From Candidatus Lambdaproteobacteria bacterium (GTDB taxonomy: Bacteria > SAR324 > JACQKK01), in assembly GCA_016199125.1 (NCBI GenBank), contig JACQHH010000181.1:1-41404 (forward strand): a DNA stretch of 41,404 nt, given 5' to 3'. The notes beneath the pieces are model-generated. The model was not told the origin of the DNA and did not search any database. It saw only the letters and a program-made list of their open reading frames with translations. The position numbers were made by a program, and so were the translations under genes. This document shows, one piece after another, positions 5,288 through 41,404 of the stretch; the first letter of the stretch is position 1; the number at the start of each line of letters is the position of its first letter.

Positions 5288-6159
5288 CAGATGCGCTCGA
5301 TGGGCTTGGTTCCGAACAACCCGTGCGGCCGCGTGAGCAGCACCAGCAGCGCGGCGATGTACGGCGTGATGTCGCGCCATTCGCTGCCCAGCAGGTAGCC
5401 CGTCACGGCTTCGAGCCAGCCGACGATCAACCCGGCCACCAGCACGCCCCCGATGCTGTCCATCCCGCCCAGAATCACCACGGCCAGCACGTTCAGCGCC
5501 ACCAGTCCCAGCGAGGGCGAAAGAGAGTTGATGGACGCCATCAGAATCCCGCTGATGGCGCCGGAGATGGCGGCGATGACCCAGGTCATGGCAAAGATGC
5601 GGTGTACATTGATGCCCATGGCGAACGAGGTGGTCTGGTCGGCCGCGGTGGCACGCAGGGCCACGCCGGCCCGCGAATAGCGAAAGTACAACACCAGCCC
5701 CACCACGACCGCCACCGCCACGGCGAAGGCACGCGCCGTCTTGCCCGGAATGAACAGCTCGCCGAGCATCACGGGGTCCCGCGAAAGAAACGAGGGCATC
5801 TGGTCGGTGTCCGACCCCCAGATGATCGATGCGATGCCGCGCATCATGATGCCCGCGCCGAACGTCACCATCACCAGGGAGATGATGGGCCGGCCCAGCA
5901 TGGGCCGCAGGATCAGCCGTTCCATCACCAGCGCGATGAGGACGGACACGGCGATGGTGACCGCCAGGCCCACCATCCAGTTCCAGCCCATCAGCACGAC
6001 GCACATGAAATACACGTAGGCCGAGACCATCATCATCTCGCCCATGGCGAAATTGAAGGTCTGGCTGGCCTTGAAGATCACGACGAAGCCCAGCGCGATG
6101 AGGGCGTAGACGCCTCCGGCCGCGATGCCCAGCGCTGAATATTCGAGGAAAATCTGCAT
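5287..6159 (-). CDS. livH: Liv-type ABC permease (LivH family)
   Basis: YALIALGFVVIFKASQTFNFAMGE, VILGGMDSIGG, RPHGLFG. Confidence 0.92.
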   Translation of the reverse strand: MQIFLEYSALGIAAGGVYALIALGFVVIFKASQTFNFAMGEMMMVSAYVYFMCVVLMGWNWMVGLAVTIAVSVLIALVMERLILRPMLGRPIISLVMVTFGAGIMMRGIASIIWGSDTDQMPSFLSRDPVMLGELFIPGKTARAFAVAVAVVVGLVLYFRYSRAGVALRATAADQTTSFAMGINVHRIFAMTWVIAAISGAISGILMASINSLSPSLGLVALNVLAVVILGGMDSIGGVLVAGLIVGWLEAVTGYLLGSEWRDITPYIAALLVLLTRPHGLFGTKPIERI

Positions 6160-21845: not shown

Positions 21846-21859
21846 TTGACCTAGGTCAA
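21846..21859. promoter_or_regulatory. Perfect palindromic operator TTGAC-CTAG-GTCAA upstream of the second Liv operon
   Basis: 14-bp perfect palindrome in the intergenic region, about 165 bp before livG. Confidence 0.55.
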
Positions 21860-29116: not shown

Positions 29117-30310
29117 ATGAGACCCGTCGTGATAGCCGGCGCGGGCATGACCCCGTTCGGAAAATTCCTGGAACGCAACGTGCGCGACCTGGCCGAGCAG
29201 GCCACCCGCGCGGCCCTGGACGATGCCCACCTGACCCCCGCGGAGGTGGGCATGGTGGCCTTCGGCAACTCCAGTTCCGGGCTCATCACCGGGCAGGAGA
29301 ACATCCGCGGCCAGGCGGCCCTGCGCAACACGGGCCTGCTGGGTTGCCCCGTGGTCAACGTGGAAAATGCCTGCGCCTCCGGCTCCAGCGCCTTTCACCT
29401 GGCTTGGCTCTACGTGGCCTCGGGGATGTGCGACGTGGCGCTGGCCGTGGGGGCGGAAAAGCTGGCCCACCGGGACAAGGCCGTGCCCTTCGCGGCCATG
29501 GAGGCGGCCCTGGACCTGGAGGAGCGCGAGCAGCTCAAGGCGTCGCTGCACCAGAGCGCCGGCGCCGGCGCCACGCAGTCCATCTTCATGGACGTCTACG
29601 CCAACCTGACCCGGCAATACATGCGGCAATCCGGGGCCACGGCCGAGAACTTCGCCGACGTGGCCGTCAAGAGCCACTTCGCCGGCGCGCGCAATCCGCG
29701 CGCGCAGTTCCGCGAGGAGGTGAGCCGCGAGGCCGTGCTGGCCAGCCGCATGATCTCCGAGCCGCTGACCCTGATGATGTGCTCGCCCATCGGCGACGGA
29801 GCGGCGGCCCTGGTGCTGTGCAGCGAGGAGGCGGCCCGCCGCGGGGGCGCCGACGCCGTGAGCGTGCGCGCCTCGGTGCTGGTTTCCGGCAGCGCCCGCG
29901 GCGAGCTGGAGCCCCCGCCCACGCGCGCCTCGCGCCAGGCCTACGCGCTGGCCGGCATCGGCCCTGAGGACGTGGACGTGGTGGAGCTGCACGACGCGGC
30001 CGCGCCCGCAGAGCTGATGCTCTACGAGGAGCTGGGCCTGGCCGGCCGGGGCGAAGGGCCGGCGCTGCTGGCCTCGGGCAGGACCCGCGTCGGCGGCAAG
30101 ATGCCGGTCAATCCCAGCGGCGGTCTGCTGAGCAAGGGGCATCCGGTGGGTGCCACGGGCTGCGCGCAGCTCTTCGAGCTCACCGAGCAGTTGCGCGGGC
30201 GGGCCGGAGCGCGCCAGCGCGAGGGGGCCCGGGTGGCCCTGGCCGAAAACGGCGGGGGCTTCCTCAACCCCGACCCGGCGGCCTGCACCATCACCATTCT
30301 CGCCCGCTAG
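29117..30310 (+). CDS. Thiolase family protein (SCP2/SCP-x type)
   Basis: VENACASGS (catalytic Cys), CSPIGDGAAA, VELHDA, NPSGGLLSKGHPVGATG, ENGGG. GGAGG RBS. Confidence 0.92.
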   Translation: MRPVVIAGAGMTPFGKFLERNVRDLAEQATRAALDDAHLTPAEVGMVAFGNSSSGLITGQENIRGQAALRNTGLLGCPVVNVENACASGSSAFHLAWLYVASGMCDVALAVGAEKLAHRDKAVPFAAMEAALDLEEREQLKASLHQSAGAGATQSIFMDVYANLTRQYMRQSGATAENFADVAVKSHFAGARNPRAQFREEVSREAVLASRMISEPLTLMMCSPIGDGAAALVLCSEEAARRGGADAVSVRASVLVSGSARGELEPPPTRASRQAYALAGIGPEDVDVVELHDAAAPAELMLYEELGLAGRGEGPALLASGRTRVGGKMPVNPSGGLLSKGHPVGATGCAQLFELTEQLRGRAGARQREGARVALAENGGGFLNPDPAACTITILAR

Positions 30311-30469
30311 GCTTTGTTCGAGAATAGTTGCCATACCCTTCGAGACGCCGCGCATGGCGCGGCTCCTCAGGGATGCGGCTTTGAAATCACGAGTGAAACT
30401 GAATACCGCGTGGCTGAGGAGTGCCCGCAGGGCGCGTCTCGAAGCCCGCTTTTTTTCTCAAACAGAGCC
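30310..30469. mobile_element. MITE-like element (TIR family A), best-preserved copy, CTTCGAGAC-type REP cargo
   Basis: CTA|GGCTTTGTTCGAGAA ... TTCTCAAACAGAGCC|TAG (13/15 inverted match, TA on both sides). The 116-bp core 30334-30449 differs from 38543-38658 at 5 positions. Confidence 0.8.
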
Positions 30470-33822: not shown

Positions 33823-33952
33823 GGTCTTTCTCCACGCTGAGATGGAAGGTTCGGGTGCCTGGTGCGGCGGATGCCCCACGCGGGGGGCGTGCGCGGTCCG
33901 GGCCTGAAGCCCAGGCATTGTACGAGGGTGCGCCAGGCGCGGATGTGCCTTA

Positions 33953-33993
33953 TGTCACTATTCCGGTGTCACTGTTCCAGTGTCACGTTCCGG
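33953..33993. repeat. Three tandem ~14-bp direct repeats
   Basis: TGTCACTATTCCGG / TGTCACTGTTCCAG / TGTCAC-GTTCCGG. Confidence 0.7.
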
Positions 33994-34064
33994 CCCGCGC
34001 CGTTCCGGTCAGCGCCGGGCATCCCGGCAGGGCCGTGGTCGCCGCGACCCACTTGCGCCCGGAG

Positions 34065-34106
34065 ATGATGTTTGTCATAGGAGAGCCGGCCACGAATCGC
34101 TAGTCT
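34065..34106 (+). promoter_or_regulatory. Crp/Fnr-type box plus -10 element for the DUF2249 gene
   Basis: ATGAT-GTTT-GTCAT (34065-34078), 22-bp gap, TAGTCT (34101-34106). Confidence 0.6.
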
Positions 34107-34252
34107 GAGCGAACCCAGGCGCAACCCGGACGTGGCGCGGCGCCGTTGCGCCGCCCCGCCGCTTGCGCCGAGCTGGGCCCCGGCGCCGGCCCGCCGCATG
34201 GCGCGGACCCCCGGCGCCCGCCACTTCCGCCGTCCCCACCCGTGGGCCGCCC

Positions 34253-34525
34253 ATGATCGCGTTCGAGCAGATCGATCCCTTCGTGAAGTTCTGGCAGGAA
34301 GACCGCACCTATCACCTGGACGTGCGCGAGCTGCTGGACAACGGCGGCGAGCCCTACGAGGTGATCATGTCCTGCGTGCTGCAGATCGACGCGGACGATC
34401 GGCTGGTGCTGCACGCCCCCTTCGAGCCCAAACCCCTCATCCGCCAGTTGCGCGGCATGGGCCTGCAGGCCCACAGCGCGCGGGTGGACGTGGATCATTG
34501 GACATTGGCCGTCAGTCGCGACTAG
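34253..34525 (+). CDS. DUF2249-domain (TusA/SirA-like fold) protein
   Basis: 'LDVRELLDNGGEPYEVIM...L.LHAPFEPKPL...L..MG......W' matches the DUF2249 pattern. Confidence 0.8.
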   Translation: MIAFEQIDPFVKFWQEDRTYHLDVRELLDNGGEPYEVIMSCVLQIDADDRLVLHAPFEPKPLIRQLRGMGLQAHSARVDVDHWTLAVSRD

Positions 34526-34695
34526 GCATTGTGTTGGAATGGCGGATCGCGTGAATCCGGCCGCGTTTGTCATTCCGAGGCCCGCAGTTTGGGCCGAGGA
34601 ATCTCATTGCTATAGCACGATGAGATTCCTCGCTGTGCTCGGAATGACAACAGGCGGGTAATTTTGAAGTTGCCATCGCATTGCCGAACAGAACC
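34525..34695. mobile_element. MITE-like element (TIR family A) carrying a GTCATTCCG-type REP hairpin
   Basis: CTA|GGCATTGTGTTGGAA ... TTGCCGAACAGAACC|TAG. Both flanking CTAGs are stop codons of convergent genes. Internal perfect 13-bp inverted repeat TTGTCATTCCGAG/CTCGGAATGACAA (34567-34650). Confidence 0.65.
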
Positions 34696-35084
34696 TAGTC
34701 CCGCGTCCAAAGCAGGGCGCGCAGCCTGGGGTGGCGCAGCGCCAGCCCGACCCACAACAGCGCCGCCACGTAGCACGGAAACAGCGTGTGGCTGAACAGC
34801 GGGCTGCCGATGCGCACGTGCGTGGCCACCGCACCCCCGAGATAGCCCGTCAGCCAGATCGAGCCGTAGAGCGCCGTCCACGGGATGACATAGAGCACCA
34901 GGCCCGCCAGCAGGAGTGCGCCGATGACCGGCACCGCGCCGGGCGGATAGCCGAGCTGGACGGTCCACTGGACGACGGCTTCCATGCGCAGCGCATGGGT
35001 CACTCCGTCGAAGAGGAGAAAAGCCACCGCGAGGCCGCTGAGCACGCGGCCGCTCCAGAGCTGTTTTCGTGTCACCTGATTCAT
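34695..35084 (-). CDS. DoxX-family membrane protein
   Basis: Four TM segments, 'LGYP', 'LYVIP.T...G...LTGYLGGAVATHVR'. GGAGG RBS before ATG 35084. Confidence 0.85.
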   Translation of the reverse strand: MNQVTRKQLWSGRVLSGLAVAFLLFDGVTHALRMEAVVQWTVQLGYPPGAVPVIGALLLAGLVLYVIPWTALYGSIWLTGYLGGAVATHVRIGSPLFSHTLFPCYVAALLWVGLALRHPRLRALLWTRD

Positions 35085-35230
35085 TGGCGTCGACCTCCCG
35101 TCCAGTCGGTTGGGCTGCGTGATGCGCTTGAACATCCCGTGGGTGCCGCGGGCGTCGCCCGGGATGCCGCAGGTCCATCCCCTTGCCGCCCGATGCGGCA
35201 AGGCCCGCGAATCCGCGCGCCACGGCGGGA

Positions 35231-35998
35231 TCAGGGTGAAGAGTCCTGGGACATCAGCTCCCGCAGCGCGTCCAGGTCGGGAATGAGAAATCCCTCCGGC
35301 GCCGAGTGCACCACGTTGTCCTTGTTCCAGCGGCTCATGATGCGGATCACGGTTTCCACCCGGGCGCCCACCATGCCGGCCACTTCGTTGCGGCTCAGGT
35401 GCACCGGCACCAGCACCCCGCCGTCCTGCTCCCGCCCCATCTCCCGCGCGTAGGTGAGCAGCAACTGGGCGATGCGCGACTGCACGCCGGCCTCCCCCAG
35501 CACCTCCAGCCGATGCCGCAGCGAGCGCACGCGCAGGTTGAGGTCGCGGATGATGGAGCGCGAAACCTCGGGAAAGCGCTCCAGCAGCTCCAGGTACTCC
35601 TTGCGCGCCAGCAGCATCACGCCGGCGTCCGTGCGGGCCACGGCATTGGCCGGGAAATCGTCGCCATTGATCAGCGCCACTTCGCCGAACGCTTCGCCGG
35701 GGCGGATGATGTCCATGATCATCTCACGCCCGGATTCCAGCGCCTTGAACACGGTCACCTCGCCCCTGAGCACGAAATAGAAATGCGTGCACGGATCGCC
35801 CTCGAAGAAGATCGCCTCGCCCTTGCGGTATTCGCGCAGGCTGCTCTGCTGGTGCAGCAGGGCGCGTGCCTTCTCGGAAATCCCTGAAAAGCGGGCGATT
35901 TTCTGGATGATGGCGGGGTCGATCAAGAGCGATCCTGATGCGGGGGCGGTCCCGGGCGCGGCGGGCGCTGGCGCAGGCGCCGTCCTACCCGCTACCAT
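35231..35998 (-). CDS. Crp/Fnr family transcriptional regulator (no FNR Cys cluster; DNR/NnrR/HcpR-like)
   Basis: cNMP-binding domain (IFFEGD, GEV, GEAFGEVA) and HTH 'SRNEVAGMVGARVETVIR'. Only one Cys. The true start may lie downstream of 35998. Confidence 0.9.
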   Translation of the reverse strand: MVAGRTAPAPAPAAPGTAPASGSLLIDPAIIQKIARFSGISEKARALLHQQSSLREYRKGEAIFFEGDPCTHFYFVLRGEVTVFKALESGREMIMDIIRPGEAFGEVALINGDDFPANAVARTDAGVMLLARKEYLELLERFPEVSRSIIRDLNLRVRSLRHRLEVLGEAGVQSRIAQLLLTYAREMGREQDGGVLVPVHLSRNEVAGMVGARVETVIRIMSRWNKDNVVHSAPEGFLIPDLDALRELMSQDSSP

Positions 35999-36040
35999 AT
36001 GACCGATGTCATAGTCGCGGCAACATGGCTATGGCAGAAT
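35999..36040 (+). promoter_or_regulatory. Crp/Fnr-type box plus extended -10 for the cytochrome b/Fe-S gene
   Basis: ATGAC-CGAT-GTCAT (35999-36012), 22-bp gap, TGG-CAGAAT (hexamer 36035-36040). Confidence 0.65.
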
Positions 36041-36112
36041 AGAATACCGATCAGAATTCAAATCCGCTGCCCCTGCCCGGGAGCCGCCTTCGCTTGAGCA
36101 CGGAGTTTCGTC

Positions 36113-37714
36113 TTGCAGACGCCCCACACCTATTTCCCCACACGCCCGCCGGCCGCACGGCTGGTGGAGCGGATTTTCAATCCGCTGGACACGCTGTGCA
36201 ACCGTCTCTACGGCTCGCGCTACAATCCGCTCTACCAGAGCGGCACCATCGCCGTGCTGAGCCTGCTGGTGCTGCTGGTGACGGGGCTCTACCTGCTGTG
36301 GTTCTACAAGATCGGAGCCCCCTACGAGTCCGTGACCAACATCGAAGCGCAGTGGTGGGGCGGCCGTTTGATCCGCGCGGTGCACGTGTATGCCGGTGAC
36401 GTCATGATGGTCGCCGTGGCGGTGCACGCGCTGCGCATGGCCCTGCGCGGGCGCACCTGGGGACCGCGGGTGCTGGCCTGGATCAGCGGCGTGGTGCTGG
36501 TGTCCATCGTCATGATGAGCAGCATCACGGGCATGGTGCTGGTGTGGGATGTGCAGGGCCAGTTGCTGGCCATCGAGGGCGCGCGCATGGCGGACACGCT
36601 GCCCATCTTCTCCGAGCCCATCCAGCGCACGTTCATCAGCAGCCAGGGGGTGCCGGCCTCGTTCTTCTTCCTCAACCTGATCCTGCACATGGTGTTTCCC
36701 TTCGCCATCCTGATCGGGCTGTGGGTGCACACGCTGCGCGTGTCGCGGCCGGCGCTGCTGCCGCCGCGCAAGCTGTCGGCGTGGCTGCTGGTGGCCCTGT
36801 TGGGGGTGTCGCTGGCCTATCCGGCGGGCATGCTGCCGCCTGCGGACTACCTGACCATCCTGGGCCGGGTGCCCGTGGACTGGATCAACACGTTCTGGCT
36901 GCTCGTCTCGCGCAACGTGCCGCCGCCGGTGACGCTGCTCAGCGGGCTGGCGCTGTTCCTGTTCCTGGTGAGCGTGCCCTGGTGGTGGAAGCCGCGCCTG
37001 GCGGCGCACCCGGAGCCCGCGCGGGCCAACCCCAACCTGTGTACGGGCTGCACCCAGTGCTACAAGGACTGCCCCTACGGGGCCATCAGCATGGTGCCGG
37101 CGCCGCCCAGCAACCATGCCACGGACATCGTGGCGCTGATCAATCCGGCGCTGTGCGTGAGCTGCGGCATCTGCGCCGGGTCCTGCGGCCCCATGGTCGT
37201 GGGTCCGCCGGGGCGCGTGGGGCGCGACCACCTGCTGGCGGCCCAGCGCCTGATGACCGCCGCGGCCCCCGGCGCCGAGGACATCGTGCTCATGGCCTGC
37301 GAGCAGGGGCTGGGGCTGGAGCCGGTGCTGGCCGGGCTGCCGCACGTGACCGTGCACCGCCTGCACTGCGCCGCCGCCGTGCACACCTCGGCCATGGAAT
37401 ACCTGCTGCGGCGCGGCTGCGGCGGGGTGTACGTGCTGGCCTGTCCGGAGCGCGACTGCGCCTATCGCGAAGGCCCCAGGTGGCTCCGTGAGCGGCTCTA
37501 CGAGGACCGCGAGGCCGAGCTGCAGCCGCGCGTGGACAAGCGCCGCGTGAAGATGGGCGGTTTCGGCCCGGCCGACCTGCCCCAGGCCCTGGCCGACATC
37601 GGCGCGTTCCAGGCGGACATCGCCGCCCTGGCCCACGAGGCCCGTGACGAAGGGGACGTGCAGCTCGAACCCGATTGCGAGCCCATGCCGCTGGCGGAGG
37701 TGGCCCATGGTTAG
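36113..37714 (+). CDS. Fusion protein: di-heme cytochrome b/b6 domain + 2x[4Fe-4S] ferredoxin + MvhD/FlpD-like [2Fe-2S] domain
   Basis: Heme His pairs RAVHVY..AVHALR and ILHMV..WVHTLR; 'LVTGLYL..FY..GAPYESV'; CTGCTQCYKDCP; CVSCGICAGSCG; MAC..LHCAAAV..ACPERDCAYREG. TTG start with GGAG RBS. Confidence 0.88.
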   Translation: MQTPHTYFPTRPPAARLVERIFNPLDTLCNRLYGSRYNPLYQSGTIAVLSLLVLLVTGLYLLWFYKIGAPYESVTNIEAQWWGGRLIRAVHVYAGDVMMVAVAVHALRMALRGRTWGPRVLAWISGVVLVSIVMMSSITGMVLVWDVQGQLLAIEGARMADTLPIFSEPIQRTFISSQGVPASFFFLNLILHMVFPFAILIGLWVHTLRVSRPALLPPRKLSAWLLVALLGVSLAYPAGMLPPADYLTILGRVPVDWINTFWLLVSRNVPPPVTLLSGLALFLFLVSVPWWWKPRLAAHPEPARANPNLCTGCTQCYKDCPYGAISMVPAPPSNHATDIVALINPALCVSCGICAGSCGPMVVGPPGRVGRDHLLAAQRLMTAAAPGAEDIVLMACEQGLGLEPVLAGLPHVTVHRLHCAAAVHTSAMEYLLRRGCGGVYVLACPERDCAYREGPRWLRERLYEDREAELQPRVDKRRVKMGGFGPADLPQALADIGAFQADIAALAHEARDEGDVQLEPDCEPMPLAEVAHG

Positions 37715-38339
37715 GCGCGCGGGACTGTGGGTGCTGCGCTTCGCGGTGCCCGTGCTGGCGCTGCTGGCGCTGGTCTGGGTGGCGCGGCTGCCCATGGGCA
37801 GCGATCCGCGGGATGGCCTGCTGCGCCTGGCCTGGCGCACCGTGGGCGCGCGCATCAAGGTGTGCCGCGACTACACGCCCGCAGAGCTGCAACGCGTTCC
37901 CGCGCACATGCGCGCCCAGCGCATCTGCGCGCAATCGCTGCTGCCCTATCGCGTGCGCGCCAGCGTGGACGGCGTGCCCGTGGTGGATCAGCTCGTGCAA
38001 CCGGCCGGCGTGCGCGGCGACAGGCCGCTGTTCGTGCATCGCGACCTGACCCTGGCGCCGGGCACCCATCGGCTGGCGTTGCACTGGGACCCGGAGCCGG
38101 CCGAGGGCATCGAGGACGCCGCCTTGCGCGACGCCACCCGCGACGCCACCGCCGACGCGTCCCGCTACGCCCTGGAGCGCGAGGTGCGCATCGCCGCGGG
38201 GCGCATCGTCATGATCGAGCTGGACGAAGCGGCGCGCGGATTCCGCGTGATCGGCGAGGGCCAGACCGCCTCCCGCGGCAACCAGGCTCTGTCCGGGAAA
38301 GACGAATCGTCGATTCTTCGGGCCCTGGTGTCATTCTGA
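37707..38339 (+). CDS. Hypothetical N-terminally anchored exported protein, translationally coupled to the cytochrome b/Fe-S fusion
   Basis: GGAGG RBS and 8-bp overlap with the upstream gene. One TM, then 'LRLAWR...C...PAHMR..C..', beta-rich 'LAPGTHRL'. The last 18 codons lie inside a MITE. Confidence 0.75.
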   Translation: MVRRAGLWVLRFAVPVLALLALVWVARLPMGSDPRDGLLRLAWRTVGARIKVCRDYTPAELQRVPAHMRAQRICAQSLLPYRVRASVDGVPVVDQLVQPAGVRGDRPLFVHRDLTLAPGTHRLALHWDPEPAEGIEDAALRDATRDATADASRYALEREVRIAAGRIVMIELDEAARGFRVIGEGQTASRGNQALSGKDESSILRALVSF

Positions 38340-38457
38340 GGCCCGCCCCGCGGGCCGAAGCATCTGTCGATCGCAGGCACATTGGATTCCCCGCTGTGCC
38401 CGGAATGACATCCCTTCGCCGGCGTTCGGAACTTCCCCCGCATTCCCAGACACAGCC
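38285..38457. mobile_element. MITE-like element (TIR family A) carrying a GTCATTC-type REP hairpin, overlapping a CDS end
   Basis: GGCTCTGTCCGGGAA ... TTCCCAGACACAGCC (13/15 inverted match). Internal TGTCATTCTGAGGCCCGC..GGGCCGA..CGGAATGACA (38329-38410) resembles 34567-34650. Confidence 0.7.
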
Positions 38458-38518
38458 GGGCCCCCCAGGGGGAGCCGGGCAGCCTTGCCCGGCGTGGGCT
38501 GCATCCTGACCCCCCCAA

Positions 38519-38681
38519 GGTTCTATCCGGGAATGGTTGCCGTACCCTTCGAGACGCCGCGCCTGGCGCGGCTCCTCGGGGATACGGCTTTGAAATCACG
38601 AGTGAAACTGAACACCGCGTGGCTGAGGAGAGCCCGCAGGGCGCGTCTCGAAGCCCGCATTTCACATTCTCGGACAGAGCT
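38519..38681. mobile_element. MITE-like element (TIR family A), near-identical sister of 30310-30469
   Basis: GGTTCTATCCGGGAA ... TTCTCGGACAGAGCT|TA (11/15). The right end coincides with the TAA stop of the Sco gene. 111/116 core identity with the 30334 copy. Confidence 0.8.
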
Positions 38682-39607
38682 TAGCTGCCGGCGCCGTCCG
38701 CGCGGCGCACCGCCTCCACGATCCAGGAGACTGGCGGATTGTTGAGCGCGTAGACGATCCGCAGGTCGCGGTCCAGCACGAAGACCAGCGGCACGTGGTC
38801 GATGACGCCCGTCCGCTCGTCTCGCCGACGCGCCACGCCGAACTGGTCCAGCACGCGGTTCACCCGCTCCACGTCTCCCGAAAGCATGAGCGTGCGCTCC
38901 GGCAGCTCCCAGTTCCGGCGCAGACCTTCCAACGCCGAGGGCGTGTCGCGCCAGGGATCCATGGTGATCACCACCAGCGCCGGGTTGACCGTGGCGGCCA
39001 GCTCCTTGGCACTGCGCGCCACCGTGCGCAGCACCAGCGGGCACACCGTTTCGCAGTGCCCGAAGCCGAAGGAGACGATCGCCGGGCGCCCGCGCAGGTG
39101 CGCCAGGGACAGCTTGGCCCCGTGCTGATCCACCAGCACAAAGTCCGGGGCCGGACGCTCCAACCGGGGATATCCCGCCGGCAGGGGCGCGATGGACTGG
39201 TTCACCTGCGGACCGCCGGCGCCCAACAGTCCCTGCCCCAGGCGCATGGCCACCCAGCCCGTTTCCAGCACCAGGGCCAGGGCCACCAGCCACATCAGCC
39301 CCATGCCCAGCGGCCGGCGGCCCAGTGCCCGCAGCCCGGCCAGCAGCTCCTGGGTCCAGCCCAGCCACAGCAGCGCCAGCATGCCCAGCGGGCCGGCGAT
39401 CAGCGCGCCCCATCCGTATGGCGCGGGCAGGCCATTGGCCTGGGTGCCGAAGCACACGCTCTGCAGCCGGGCCAGCCACACCGGCGCGGTACCTCCCTGC
39501 GGGGCGAAGGCCAGCCCCCACCAGCTCATGGTCGCGGCCAGCCACAACAGCAGCATCAGCAGCGACAGGTTCGCCCCTGGTGAACTTTTGGCCAAACTAG
39601 CGTTCAA
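38681..39607 (-). CDS. sco: Sco/SenC copper chaperone with an N-terminal multi-TM extension
   Basis: PDFVLVDQHG, FGFGHCETVCP (CxxxC), ITMDPWRDTP, IDH. About three N-terminal TM helices with 'VCFGT..NGLP'. Start approximate. Confidence 0.88.
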   Translation of the reverse strand: MNASLAKSSPGANLSLLMLLLWLAATMSWWGLAFAPQGGTAPVWLARLQSVCFGTQANGLPAPYGWGALIAGPLGMLALLWLGWTQELLAGLRALGRRPLGMGLMWLVALALVLETGWVAMRLGQGLLGAGGPQVNQSIAPLPAGYPRLERPAPDFVLVDQHGAKLSLAHLRGRPAIVSFGFGHCETVCPLVLRTVARSAKELAATVNPALVVITMDPWRDTPSALEGLRRNWELPERTLMLSGDVERVNRVLDQFGVARRRDERTGVIDHVPLVFVLDRDLRIVYALNNPPVSWIVEAVRRADGAGS

Positions 39608-39729
39608 TTCTTACTCGCGGTATGGATGAGCAGCCGAGGCGGCGTGAGGGCGCGGTGGCGACAACGGGTCGCACGGCCACGGTTCCATCGTTCCACATCT
39701 GCATTACGAATGGTGCGCGCCCAGGGGTA

Positions 39730-39772
39730 CATGACAATTGTCATGGCGCCCCCCCTGGCCGCACCGCATGAT
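39730..39772 (+). promoter_or_regulatory. Crp/Fnr-type box plus -10 element for the heme-copper oxidoreductase operon
   Basis: Perfect 16-bp palindrome CATGACAATTGTCATG (core ATGAC-AATT-GTCAT, 39731-39744), 22-bp gap, CATGAT (39767-39772). Confidence 0.7.
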
Positions 39773-39843
39773 GCACCTGACCGCTGTGCCGCGCCAGGCG
39801 GCAGGTGTTCGACAATGTCAACCCGCGAATCAAAGGGATAGCC

Positions 39844-40008
39844 ATGAGCGCAAGCCCTGACTCCAGAAACGAGCGAGTGCCGTTCATGCAGCAACTGTTC
39901 GACAGCCCGTTCCTGCTGCTCATTGCCGGGCTGGTGGTGATGTTCATCTTCTTTACGGGCTGGGGATTGGTGGAAATCTTCTCCCTGCCGCCCGCCACAT
40001 TGCCCTGA
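39844..40008 (+). CDS. Small single-TM subunit of the heme-copper oxidoreductase (subunit IIa-like)
   Basis: 54 aa, 'PFMQQLFDSPFLLLIAGLVVMFIFFTGWGLVEI', immediately before a one-TM subunit II as in B-family operons. Confidence 0.7.
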   Translation: MSASPDSRNERVPFMQQLFDSPFLLLIAGLVVMFIFFTGWGLVEIFSLPPATLP

Positions 40009-40028
40009 CCGTAAACTAGGAGGCACCA

Positions 40029-40568
40029 ATGCCGATGCATTCGGGTATCGTCTCACCCCAGGGCGTCTGGTGGAAGCCCGTGGGCAAGCAGGAAAAAATC
40101 TGGGTCACCGTGGCCTTCATCTGGTGCATGGTGCTCTTTGCCATGATGCCCTTCTGGCACTTCAAGGGCGGCCAGAACCCCTCCGGCACCCGCAGCCGCG
40201 TGGAGCCGGCAGCCTATTTCGAGCGCGTCAACCGCTTCGTCGAAGACTACAAGGTCGGCGAGGAGAATGGCGTGCCCATCGTGGAACCGCCGCCGGGCAG
40301 CGAGGTGTACCTGTTGGCGCGCATGTGGCAATGGTATCCCATCCTCAAGCTCAAGCAGGGAGCCACCTACACGTTGCACCTCTCGTCGCTGGACCTGAAC
40401 CACGGCTTCAGCCTGTACCCGGTCAACATCAACTTCCAGGTCATCCCGGGCTACGACTATGGGCTGCAGATGACACCCAACCGTTCAGGTGATTTTCGCA
40501 TCGTCTGCAACGAATTCTGTGGGATTGGCCACCACTTGATGGTGGGCAAAGTCCTCGTCGAACCGTAG
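40029..40568 (+). CDS. Heme-copper oxidoreductase subunit II with CuA site (B-family type, single TM)
   Basis: DLNHGF and CNEFCGIGHHLM (H...CxExCxxxHxxM). AGGAGG RBS. Confidence 0.93.
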   Translation: MPMHSGIVSPQGVWWKPVGKQEKIWVTVAFIWCMVLFAMMPFWHFKGGQNPSGTRSRVEPAAYFERVNRFVEDYKVGEENGVPIVEPPPGSEVYLLARMWQWYPILKLKQGATYTLHLSSLDLNHGFSLYPVNINFQVIPGYDYGLQMTPNRSGDFRIVCNEFCGIGHHLMVGKVLVEP

Positions 40569-40613
40569 TCAACCCTTGCTCCGCAACGGAGCCCCCATTT
40601 CAGGAGGCATTCG

Positions 40614-41404
40614 ATGAGCGTTGCCCAAAGCGCAGCCGCACCAGGCCTGTTCCGCACATGCCCGGTGACGACGCTCAAGATTCACCGCAGCGCCGAAACG
40701 CTGATCAAGGTCAATGCGGTGGTGGCAGTGGTCGCGTTTCTGATCGGCGTCTCTGCCGCCATTCTGCTCGTTTTGACCCGCTGGCAGGTCGTGCACCTGC
40801 TGCCGGCCGACTGGTATTACCGCATCTTGACGGCCCACGGCCTCAACATGCTGATTTTCTTCATCCTGTTCTTCGAGATGGCGGTGCTCTACTTTGCCGG
40901 GCCCGTCCTGCTCAACAGCCGTCTGCCCGCGCCCTGGGCCGGCTGGCTGGCCTTCGGGCTGATGGTGGTGGGGGCCGCGATGGTGGAGGTGATGGTCTTC
41001 ACCGGGCGCGCCGACGTGCTGTTCACCTCATACGTGCCGTTGAAGGCCCATCCCAACTACTACCTGGGGATCATCCTCTTCGCCGTGGGCGCGCTGATCG
41101 TCACGATCCTGTTCCTGGCCACGCTGGTCGTGGCCAAGCGCGAGAAAACCTACACGGGCTCCATGCCGCTGGTGACCTTCGGCGCTCTCACGGCCGATAT
41201 CATCGCGATCGTCACGCTGCTGCACGGCGCGGCCATCTACATCCCCACCTGGCTGTGGTCCATGGGGCTGATGAACGTGGACCCGGAGGTCTACCGCATG
41301 GTGTGGTGGGCCCTGGGTCACGCCTCGCAGCAGATCAACGTGGCCGCCATGGTCTCCATCTGGTACCTCATGGCCGGGTTCACGGTGGGCGGCGTGGTGC
41401 TCAA
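40614..41404 (+). CDS. Heme-copper oxidoreductase subunit I, B-family derived, eNOR-like nitric oxide reductase (truncated by the window end)
   Basis: Missing from the ORF track because it has no stop. AGGAGG RBS, ATG 40614, open to the end. YYRILTAHG (low-spin heme His), LFTSYVPL, helix VI WWALGHASQQ (His codon 41319, Gln at the H+4 Tyr position). Confidence 0.88.
   Translation, partial: MSVAQSAAAPGLFRTCPVTTLKIHRSAETLIKVNAVVAVVAFLIGVSAAILLVLTRWQVVHLLPADWYYRILTAHGLNMLIFFILFFEMAVLYFAGPVLLNSRLPAPWAGWLAFGLMVVGAAMVEVMVFTGRADVLFTSYVPLKAHPNYYLGIILFAVGALIVTILFLATLVVAKREKTYTGSMPLVTFGALTADIIAIVTLLHGAAIYIPTWLWSMGLMNVDPEVYRMVWWALGHASQQINVAAMVSIWYLMAGFTVGGVVL

Follow-up and report, generated by a model that had tools for sequence, protein, structure and literature searches.

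What does a cytochrome b fused to iron-sulfur domains do beside a heme-copper nitric oxide (NO) reductase? The question is raised by a contig of Candidatus Lambdaproteobacteria bacterium (SAR324; JACQHH010000181.1), which we analyzed over its full 41,404 nucleotides and refer to here as the window; it is one whole contig of a metagenome-assembled genome (MAG) that is 73.5% complete. The heme-copper enzyme encoded there is of the eNOR type, which has recently been validated as a source of N2O and is widely distributed. Close to its genes, the window encodes a cytochrome b-ferredoxin-MvhD fusion protein followed by a small membrane-anchored partner, together called the module below. The initial annotation, made from the DNA letters, had read this pair as a candidate transmembrane wire that moves electrons outward, either to feed CuA or to reduce copper or thiols of the copper chaperone Sco during assembly. 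That proposal is partly supported: the architecture, the coupling of the two genes, and the tie to eNOR and Sco speak for it, and we infer the direction of flow, the donor, the acceptor, and the link to CuA or Sco thiols. The module is very probably a dedicated accessory of one eNOR clade and is co-regulated with the eNOR genes.

The three-part architecture of the 533-aa chain proved to be real, with matches above the curated Pfam cut-offs to Cytochrome_B (PF00033, residues 37 to 209; 62.8 bits, cut-off 27.2), to the 4Fe-4S dicluster domain Fer4_7 (residues 310 to 358; 32.1 bits, cut-off 27), and to FlpD/MvhD (PF02662, residues 410 to 506; 38.8 bits, cut-off 22.3). Every match in an NCBIfam scan lay far below its cut-off, and therefore no curated protein name fits the fusion; one of these matches was the C terminus of HdrA2 (NF040770), which resembles residues 296 to 505, spanning the ferredoxin and MvhD parts. 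Conservation was judged in a 30-sequence alignment, in which the heme histidines H91, H105, H192, and H206 never vary; aligned with cytochrome b6, these four residues of helices B and D match its heme ligands. Also invariant are all eight ferredoxin cysteines, forming both CxxCxxCxxxC motifs noticed earlier (C310-320 and C348-358). The four-cysteine MvhD site stood in three positions (C396, C419, and C444, all invariant), whereas the fourth ligand is either C449 or H424, whose losses are complementary in long or divergent members. The PVDW sequence said to replace the PEWY motif was located at residues 254 to 257 in the outer loop that hydropathy places between helices E and F, but only D256 is conserved (in at least 90% of sequences), and a PEWY-type quinol-oxidation (Qo) motif is absent.

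Hydropathy of the fusion predicted six transmembrane (TM) segments, with the K/R-rich loops and the Fe-S tail inside. The AF2 model of the protein (pLDDT 87.5, pTM 0.83) superposes in Foldseek over its first ~285 residues on long bc1-type cytochrome b (about 284 to 290 columns; root mean square deviation, 4.1 to 4.8 Å). The fold shared with bc1 extends over helix E, helix F, and the ef loop between them, and the fusion family has a conserved cd-loop motif, LPIFSEP..R.F. The match of the model runs through helix F. Unlike in bc1 and b6f, helices G and H are replaced by the cytoplasmic Fe-S domains, PEWY is reduced to a conserved Asp, and an unrelated beta-sandwich covers the outer face. Unlike cytochrome b6, the fusion has no heme-cn cysteine, and Q42 is aligned at that position. 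In one metatranscriptome run, contigs of 165 to 195 nt that are ~98% identical fell inside the cytochrome b gene, and others were ~91% identical to subunit II of the neighboring enzyme; both sets come from a relative in the RNA library and so are no proof of transcription, and the stretches without coverage are uninformative.

The partner most likely starts at the ATG at 37707, in an 8-nt overlap with the stop of the cytochrome b gene. Hydropathy gives it one TM helix, and its AF2 model (pLDDT 89.8) is a beta-sandwich. No Pfam family matched it, even at an E value of ≤10, and Foldseek returned no PDB match at an E value of ≤0.001 (TM score at most 0.30). The initial annotation had described a membrane-anchored protein with two cysteines flanking PAHMR. 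The anchor was confirmed, and C53 and C74 are invariant in the alignment of 20 split-form partners. The pair is not family-wide, however: fused forms from a second lineage, a class-level sample of 201 genomes around a Rhodothermales MAG, lack it and keep P-x-H-M-R/Q alone. A metagenome scan yielded at least 562 relatives, and the metagenome locus counts given here refer to the best 80, those nearest the query. A partner homolog was present downstream of the cytochrome b gene in 59 of 59 such loci with at least 700 nt of downstream sequence. At 18 loci the cytochrome b protein was of a long form (705 to 803 aa); tblastn detected partner homology within the same open reading frame (ORF) in 8, and the tails of the other 10 align with the partner, by eye and in the alignment. 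The extra tail of the long forms looked at is, judged by sequence, the partner. Among the best 150 representatives of the family, 117 are longer than 600 aa, and the two-gene form seen in the window is therefore the minority.

Complex prediction for the fusion and its partner scored 0.70, compared with 0.04 for the best of three controls. Of 80 solved complexes, 58 attained this score, as did 2 of 110 mismatched pairs; with custom alignments, these counts are only rough. The runs share at least 95% of contacts, and the partner has a pLDDT of at least 79. The confident interface takes in the ef loop (246 to 267, including PVDW), the cd loop (167 to 177), and helices B and E packed against the TM helix of the partner. 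PDB sequence and Foldseek searches returned no solved complex of like kind, and the prediction is therefore unlikely to owe its pass to memorization. The partner is placed by this model over the outer-face loops of cytochrome b, at the former Qo loops, a position that we take to be the docking place of the Rieske head in bc1. Because of the gene overlap, the fusion in most relatives, and the passed complex prediction, the two genes are best regarded as specifying one membrane unit, encoded by a single gene in most relatives; the annotated coupling was thus upheld. Among Protein Atlas clusters, look-alikes of the partner occur as FlpD plus partner, Fer4 plus FlpD plus partner, and cytochrome b plus Fer4 (TM scores of 0.49 to 0.56, leads only). 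These point to further arrangements, some split and some fused, in Nitrospinota, Nitrospirota, and Chloroflexota.

A PF00033 match with a bc1-like fold could also come from a conventional complex III, a Rieske/cytochrome b complex that has the genes for its remaining subunits elsewhere, its cytochrome b gene standing near the oxidase genes by chance. The window has no match to Rieske (PF00355), and the sole match in its genome is one Rieske-domain gene on contig C156, which would suit this explanation. Rieske was not found, however, in three of five module-bearing genomes, those three being 91 to 97% complete, and no cytochrome c1 turned up in the genome of the window (73.5% complete), so the initial reading of a cytochrome b with neither partner was borne out. 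The replacement of helices G and H and the strict co-occurrence with one eNOR clade described below likewise speak against an ordinary complex III, which we consider close to refuted. In all five genomes checked, the fusion is the only PF00033 cytochrome b. NiFe hydrogenase occurs in the window's genome only on contig C49, and one host genome has none above the cut-off.

The assignment of the neighboring heme-copper enzyme to eNOR follows from its subunit I, in which GH-A-S-Q-Q is aligned with GH-P-I-V-Y of Thermus ba3, so that Gln takes the place of the cross-link Tyr. In the accessible text of PMC8756737, a Gln in place of the cross-linked active-site Tyr is the criterion for eNOR, and by this replacement the enzyme classes as eNOR-type on its sequence. 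The further eNOR features, a CuA-type subunit II and a relation to the B family, were also found: 18 of 19 PDB sequence matches of subunit I are ba3-type, and the best one, 7deg_A, is labeled just "cytochrome c oxidase subunit I." The biochemistry of eNOR (NO reductase activity, FeB, and heme As) is known from R. marinus alone, according to the accessible portion of PMC11214002.

The fusion is abundant. In a 90%-identity protein collection, 1619 proteins matched at an E value of ≤0.001 among 8000 candidates scored, and both PF00033 and PF02662 were present in all 120 best matches. The fusion family comprises 664 clusters at 50% identity (E value, ≤1e-30), and the source names of its members, for example from Gemmatimonadota, are only "hydrogenase iron-sulfur subunit" or "cytochrome b N-terminal domain-containing protein." Two proteins seemingly without FlpD (P0265 and P0169) end in Arg-rich garbage tails and are probably frameshifted. 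The statement that no characterized protein has this architecture therefore needs qualification: the type is common, and similar genes are remarked on once in the accessible part of a 2026 preprint discussed below, although it is otherwise unstudied.

Across genomes, the fusion keeps strict company with eNOR. In the window's phylum it occurs in 15 of 88 genomes, and the same 15 hold an eNOR-like subunit I at ≥52% identity. Fusion and eNOR genes lie no more than 4 kb apart in 11 of 14 fetched loci, the other 3 being short or one-sided contigs from genomes that hold subunit I elsewhere. Twelve of the 201 second-lineage genomes have the fusion, and the same 12 hold a subunit I at least 64% identical to the query; all 12 loci are ordered small protein, subunit II, subunit I, Sco, fusion. 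In the metagenomes, eNOR-like genes were detected at 58 of 80 loci and at every one of the 21 that have 3.5 kb or more on each side; all 22 loci without them have a flank shorter than 3.5 kb. The signature GH[SA][SA]QQ was present in 40 of 50 subunit I matches from these loci. In the commonest layout (43 of 50), small protein, subunit II, subunit I, and Sco run in that order, divergent from fusion and partner. We consider it very probable that the module is a transmembrane redox module dedicated to eNOR.

Sco was found at the same 21 of 21 two-flanked metagenome loci and at all 12 second-lineage loci, and it lies beside the partner in the window; a further eNOR clade that has no module, described below, likewise has no Sco at its locus. 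These observations favor the main rival explanation, in which the module is a maturation factor, a transmembrane reductase of metals or thiols acting together with Sco while eNOR of this clade is assembled. Its targets at the outer face would be Cu(II) for reduction to Cu(I), Fe(III) for reduction to Fe(II) to supply FeB, or the cysteines of Sco or CuA for re-reduction, by a logic that may resemble that of the di-heme ferric/cupric reductases, CcoG, and CrpH. The outward domain of the partner has a conserved His-Met pair, and His and Met are typical Cu(I) ligands. Moreover, heme-containing membrane reductases that support heme-copper enzymes exist: the accessible literature describes CcoG (the cupric reductase of cbb3 assembly) and CrpH (a PepSY_TM heme protein) as membrane redox proteins beside or for such enzymes, although, unlike the module, CcoG has no cytochrome b and CrpH no Fe-S domains. 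CcoG combines two [4Fe-4S] motifs with an Ig-like domain at its C terminus. That the partner is homologous to this domain (FixG_C) was nevertheless rejected, with an hhalign probability of 0.6% and no Pfam match at an E value of ≤10. One 97%-complete genome (L028) has the module and eNOR with no Sco at the locus, and in 43 of 50 loci Sco is co-transcribed with subunits II and I whereas the module is a separate divergent unit. A low-potential chain of three clusters also exceeds what Cu(II) reduction needs. Finally, the lone apparent Sco-cytochrome b-Fer4 fusion (P0275, 676 aa) has no TM helix between its outward Sco and inward cytochrome b and is probably two merged ORFs. On balance, a role in maturation seems somewhat unlikely.

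We instead propose a scheme in which the module would act as an electron conduit for eNOR. The Rieske-less bc1-type cytochrome b would provide six helices with two b hemes stacked across the membrane, its cytoplasmic tail would hold two [4Fe-4S] clusters and an MvhD-type [2Fe-2S] site, and the TM-anchored beta-sandwich would cap the outer face at the former Qo loops. A cytoplasmic donor would dock on the MvhD domain and give electrons to the [2Fe-2S] site; from there they would pass through the [4Fe-4S] clusters to the inner heme, the outer heme, and the outer face, and on to the CuA of eNOR, either directly or via a small carrier or quinone pocket. We infer the cofactor loading as well as the flow direction, donor, and acceptor of this scheme. 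Outward flow is favored because the Fe-S clusters form a chain of the low-potential type and the export of electrons is aided by membrane voltage, and flow to eNOR in particular because the link to eNOR is strict and the module is a separate, co-regulated unit. That the job of the module is to supply electrons to eNOR by outward flow is accordingly a tentative proposal, which we hold with slightly less than even confidence. In a farther-reaching reading that we rate as unlikely, the module would be a new respiratory entry complex, a Rieske-less "complex III relative" that wires the low-potential Fe-S/MvhD chemistry of the cytoplasm straight to a proton-translocating NO reductase, maybe in a supercomplex. 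One version would amount to an NAD(P)H/ferredoxin:NO oxidoreductase chain that bypasses quinone; in the boldest, the very high potential of NO reduction would drive quinol-based bifurcation and make low-potential reductant.

Electrons might also run the other way. Quinol would then be oxidized at a kept Qo-like pocket and at least one electron sent inward via the hemes and Fe-S clusters to a cytoplasmic acceptor such as NAD(P)+ or ferredoxin, in the manner of a NarI-like redox loop or driven by passing the other electron to high-potential eNOR, the latter idea being found in the accessible part of the Ferrigenium preprint discussed below. The conservation of D256 in the outer loop and of the cd-loop motif is consistent with such a pocket, as is the match of the fold to quinol-oxidizing cytochrome b. 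An eNOR-operon paralog with added FAD and NADH domains is also described in that preprint, with a proposed role as a quinol:NAD+ oxidoreductase. However, no Rieske protein or other high-potential first acceptor stands at the pocket, which is capped by a domain without cofactor. Inward flow to low-potential clusters would also oppose both potential and membrane voltage. A FAD/NADH variant was not seen among the best 150 representatives, and no relative longer than 933 aa was found, although this is weak evidence. We judge inward flow or bifurcation to be quite improbable.

Several points weigh against the reading of the module as an outward conduit dedicated to eNOR. The related genomes are not independent samples, and the identity cut between eNOR clades was set after the data had been seen. 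A second eNOR clade occurs in 9 of the 201 second-lineage genomes (42 to 45% identity, a GHGSQQ-type motif, and CuA-type subunit II matches); no Sco, fusion, or partner lies within ±8 to 10 kb of its genes, and none of the 9 genomes has the fusion anywhere at an E value of ≤1e-20. One subunit I of this clade is letter for letter that of a record named Rhodothermus marinus DSM 4252, the strain whose eNOR, as the accessible portion of PMC11214002 reports, was purified and reduces NO. The module is therefore no general requirement of eNOR, and the tie to eNOR-type enzymes holds for one clade and fails for the other. The partner has no recognizable redox-cofactor motif, and thus there is no obvious carrier from the outer heme to CuA; its conserved His-Met pair, H67 and M68, lies outside the confident interface of the complex prediction. 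The loci share no conserved gene for a cytoplasmic donor. Furthermore, NrfD-family genes, possibly of alternative complex III, are present in all five genomes checked, so another quinol route to periplasmic carriers may exist.

Among known systems, the cytoplasmic end of the module resembles the MvhD/FlpD connector of Mvh-Hdr and related complexes, with which it shares a PF02662 domain above the cut-off and conserved Cys ligands. Unlike that connector, it is fused to a membrane cytochrome b, and no hydrogenase, formate dehydrogenase, or HdrA-like context was seen in loci probed with the window's neighbor proteins, HdrA-like genes not having been searched for themselves. Homologs sitting mainly in Rieske, Hdr, or hydrogenase operons would have spoken against a role with eNOR; with the same probes, this context was not seen in 35 genome and 80 metagenome loci. 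Two membrane-spanning b hemes coupled to cytoplasmic Fe-S centers occur in NarI-NarH, HdrE-HdrD, DsrM-DsrK, and QmoC, which follow the same logic as the module. However, anchors of the NarI type belong to the NarI family rather than the bc1 family and serve nitrate or sulfur metabolism, not a heme-copper NO reductase.

Two mentions of similar genes or proteins were found in print, with supplements outside this search. First, the accessible part of a preprint (bioRxiv 10.64898/2026.01.22.701106) describes the eNOR operon of Ferrigenium straubiae as containing cytochrome b and Fe-S genes and sco1, calls the cytochrome b and Fe-S genes "rather unusual," reports detection of the proteins under denitrifying conditions, and proposes a supercomplex. 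That part makes no mention of an MvhD domain or of the partner, in addition to describing the FAD/NADH-bearing paralog; the genes are likened to the window's fusion by their description, not by sequence comparison. Second, one entry in the accessible form of Table A3 of PMC8756737 is a protein that combines cytochrome c, cytochrome b6, DMSOR-beta-like, and FlpD domains. The module goes unmentioned in the main text of Murali et al.

Taken together, these results suggest that (i) one large eNOR clade, seen in the window's phylum and in Balneolaceae-type Bacteroidota and with close homologs named from Gemmatimonadota, always carries a conserved and unstudied cytochrome b-FeS-MvhD-cap module; (ii) the module is a concrete candidate, amenable to testing, for the electron or maturation pathway still missing for eNOR; (iii) it provides a genomic marker that divides eNOR into two physiological types; and (iv) it illustrates how a bc1-type cytochrome b has been put to new use with no Rieske protein.

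The features of the locus are listed in Table 1. As initially noted, the module and the heme-copper operon have a promoter palindrome in common, ATGAC-N4-GTCAT, which occurs at 7 sites in the 2.98-Mb genome; a reversed control occurs at none. A third exact copy in the window (5576-5589) is far from the eNOR genes, and a copy with one mismatch, ATGATGTTTGTCAT, at 34065-34078 precedes a DUF2249 gene. This gene (34163-34525, plus strand) and a DoxX-like gene (34695-35201, minus strand) lie just upstream of the regulator. The regulator itself has no N-terminal Cys cluster in its sequence. The canonical FNR box, TTGA-N6-TCAA, was considered and is absent from both promoters, its sole match in the window being at 21846.

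Table 1. Coordinates of the module and surrounding features, counted from the first nucleotide of the window
Feature	Position	Strand	Details
Crp/FNR-family regulator, 255 aa	35231..35998	-	cNMP_binding 86 bits, HTH_Crp_2 51.2 bits; divergent from cytochrome b gene
Palindrome ATGACCGATGTCAT (ATGAC-N4-GTCAT)	35999..36012	.	Intergenic, between regulator and cytochrome b genes
Cytochrome b-2x[4Fe-4S] ferredoxin-MvhD/FlpD fusion	36113..37714	+	533 aa; TTG start; six TM helices; two heme b (predicted)
Cytochrome b domain of fusion	about 36218-36739	+	Pfam
Fer4 domain of fusion	about 37028-37186	+	Pfam
FlpD domain of fusion	about 37340-37630	+	Pfam
Partner, 210 aa	37707..38339	+	TM helix (residues 7-25) and outward-facing beta-sandwich; P-x-H-M-R motif; C53, C74
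Intergenic repeat, 151 nt	38512..38662	+	Between partner gene and sco; 90% identical copy at 30303-30453
Sco1/SenC copper chaperone homolog, 308 aa	38681..39607	-	PF02630 84.1 bits; CETVC motif; extended hydrophobic N terminus
Palindrome copy ATGACAATTGTCAT (ATGAC-N4-GTCAT)	39731..39744	.	Upstream of heme-copper operon
Small one-TM protein	39805..40008	+	67 aa from GTG 39805; likelier 54 aa from ATG 39844; no Pfam family
Heme-copper subunit II, CuA motif CNEFCGIGHHLM	40029..40568	+	Motif from sequence
eNOR-type subunit I, N-terminal 263 aa	40614..41404	+	PF00115 93.3 bits; cut by contig end

The PF02630 homolog next to the partner gene is the sco gene of the initial annotation. Its N-terminal extension of ~140 aa holds two to three hydrophobic segments rather than the usual single anchor, and the size of this extension is kept in related loci. 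The small one-TM protein is conserved ahead of subunit II in most related loci, as detected by tblastn. Subunit II matches PF00116 at 20.2 bits, just below the 22-bit cut-off, and TIGR02866 at 45.3 bits, also below its cut-off. The presumed rest of subunit I is at the end of another contig (G000:C200:14755-15711, minus strand), where it is followed by an NnrS-family gene (PF05940, 191 bits; L069:9186-10568, minus strand); we take the NnrS family to be linked to NO stress. A divergent COX1-like gene of ~416 to 470 aa (PF00115, 26 to 42 bits) was observed at G000:C159:1384-2631 (L070) and at L055:14191-15603, and it immediately precedes the eNOR genes, beside an Rrf2-family regulator, in several loci of the second lineage. 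At the loci of the second eNOR clade (L062, L060-L068), small protein, subunit II, and subunit I are followed by a 259-aa protein of no family.

The 151-nt repeat between the partner gene and sco probably lies outside the module. Rfam returned no family in 33900-41404, a region that includes it. A third copy is present on contig C174 (G000:C174:3877-4010), with shorter core matches on other contigs, and in one metagenome run the read depth peaked at ~245 inside the repeat.

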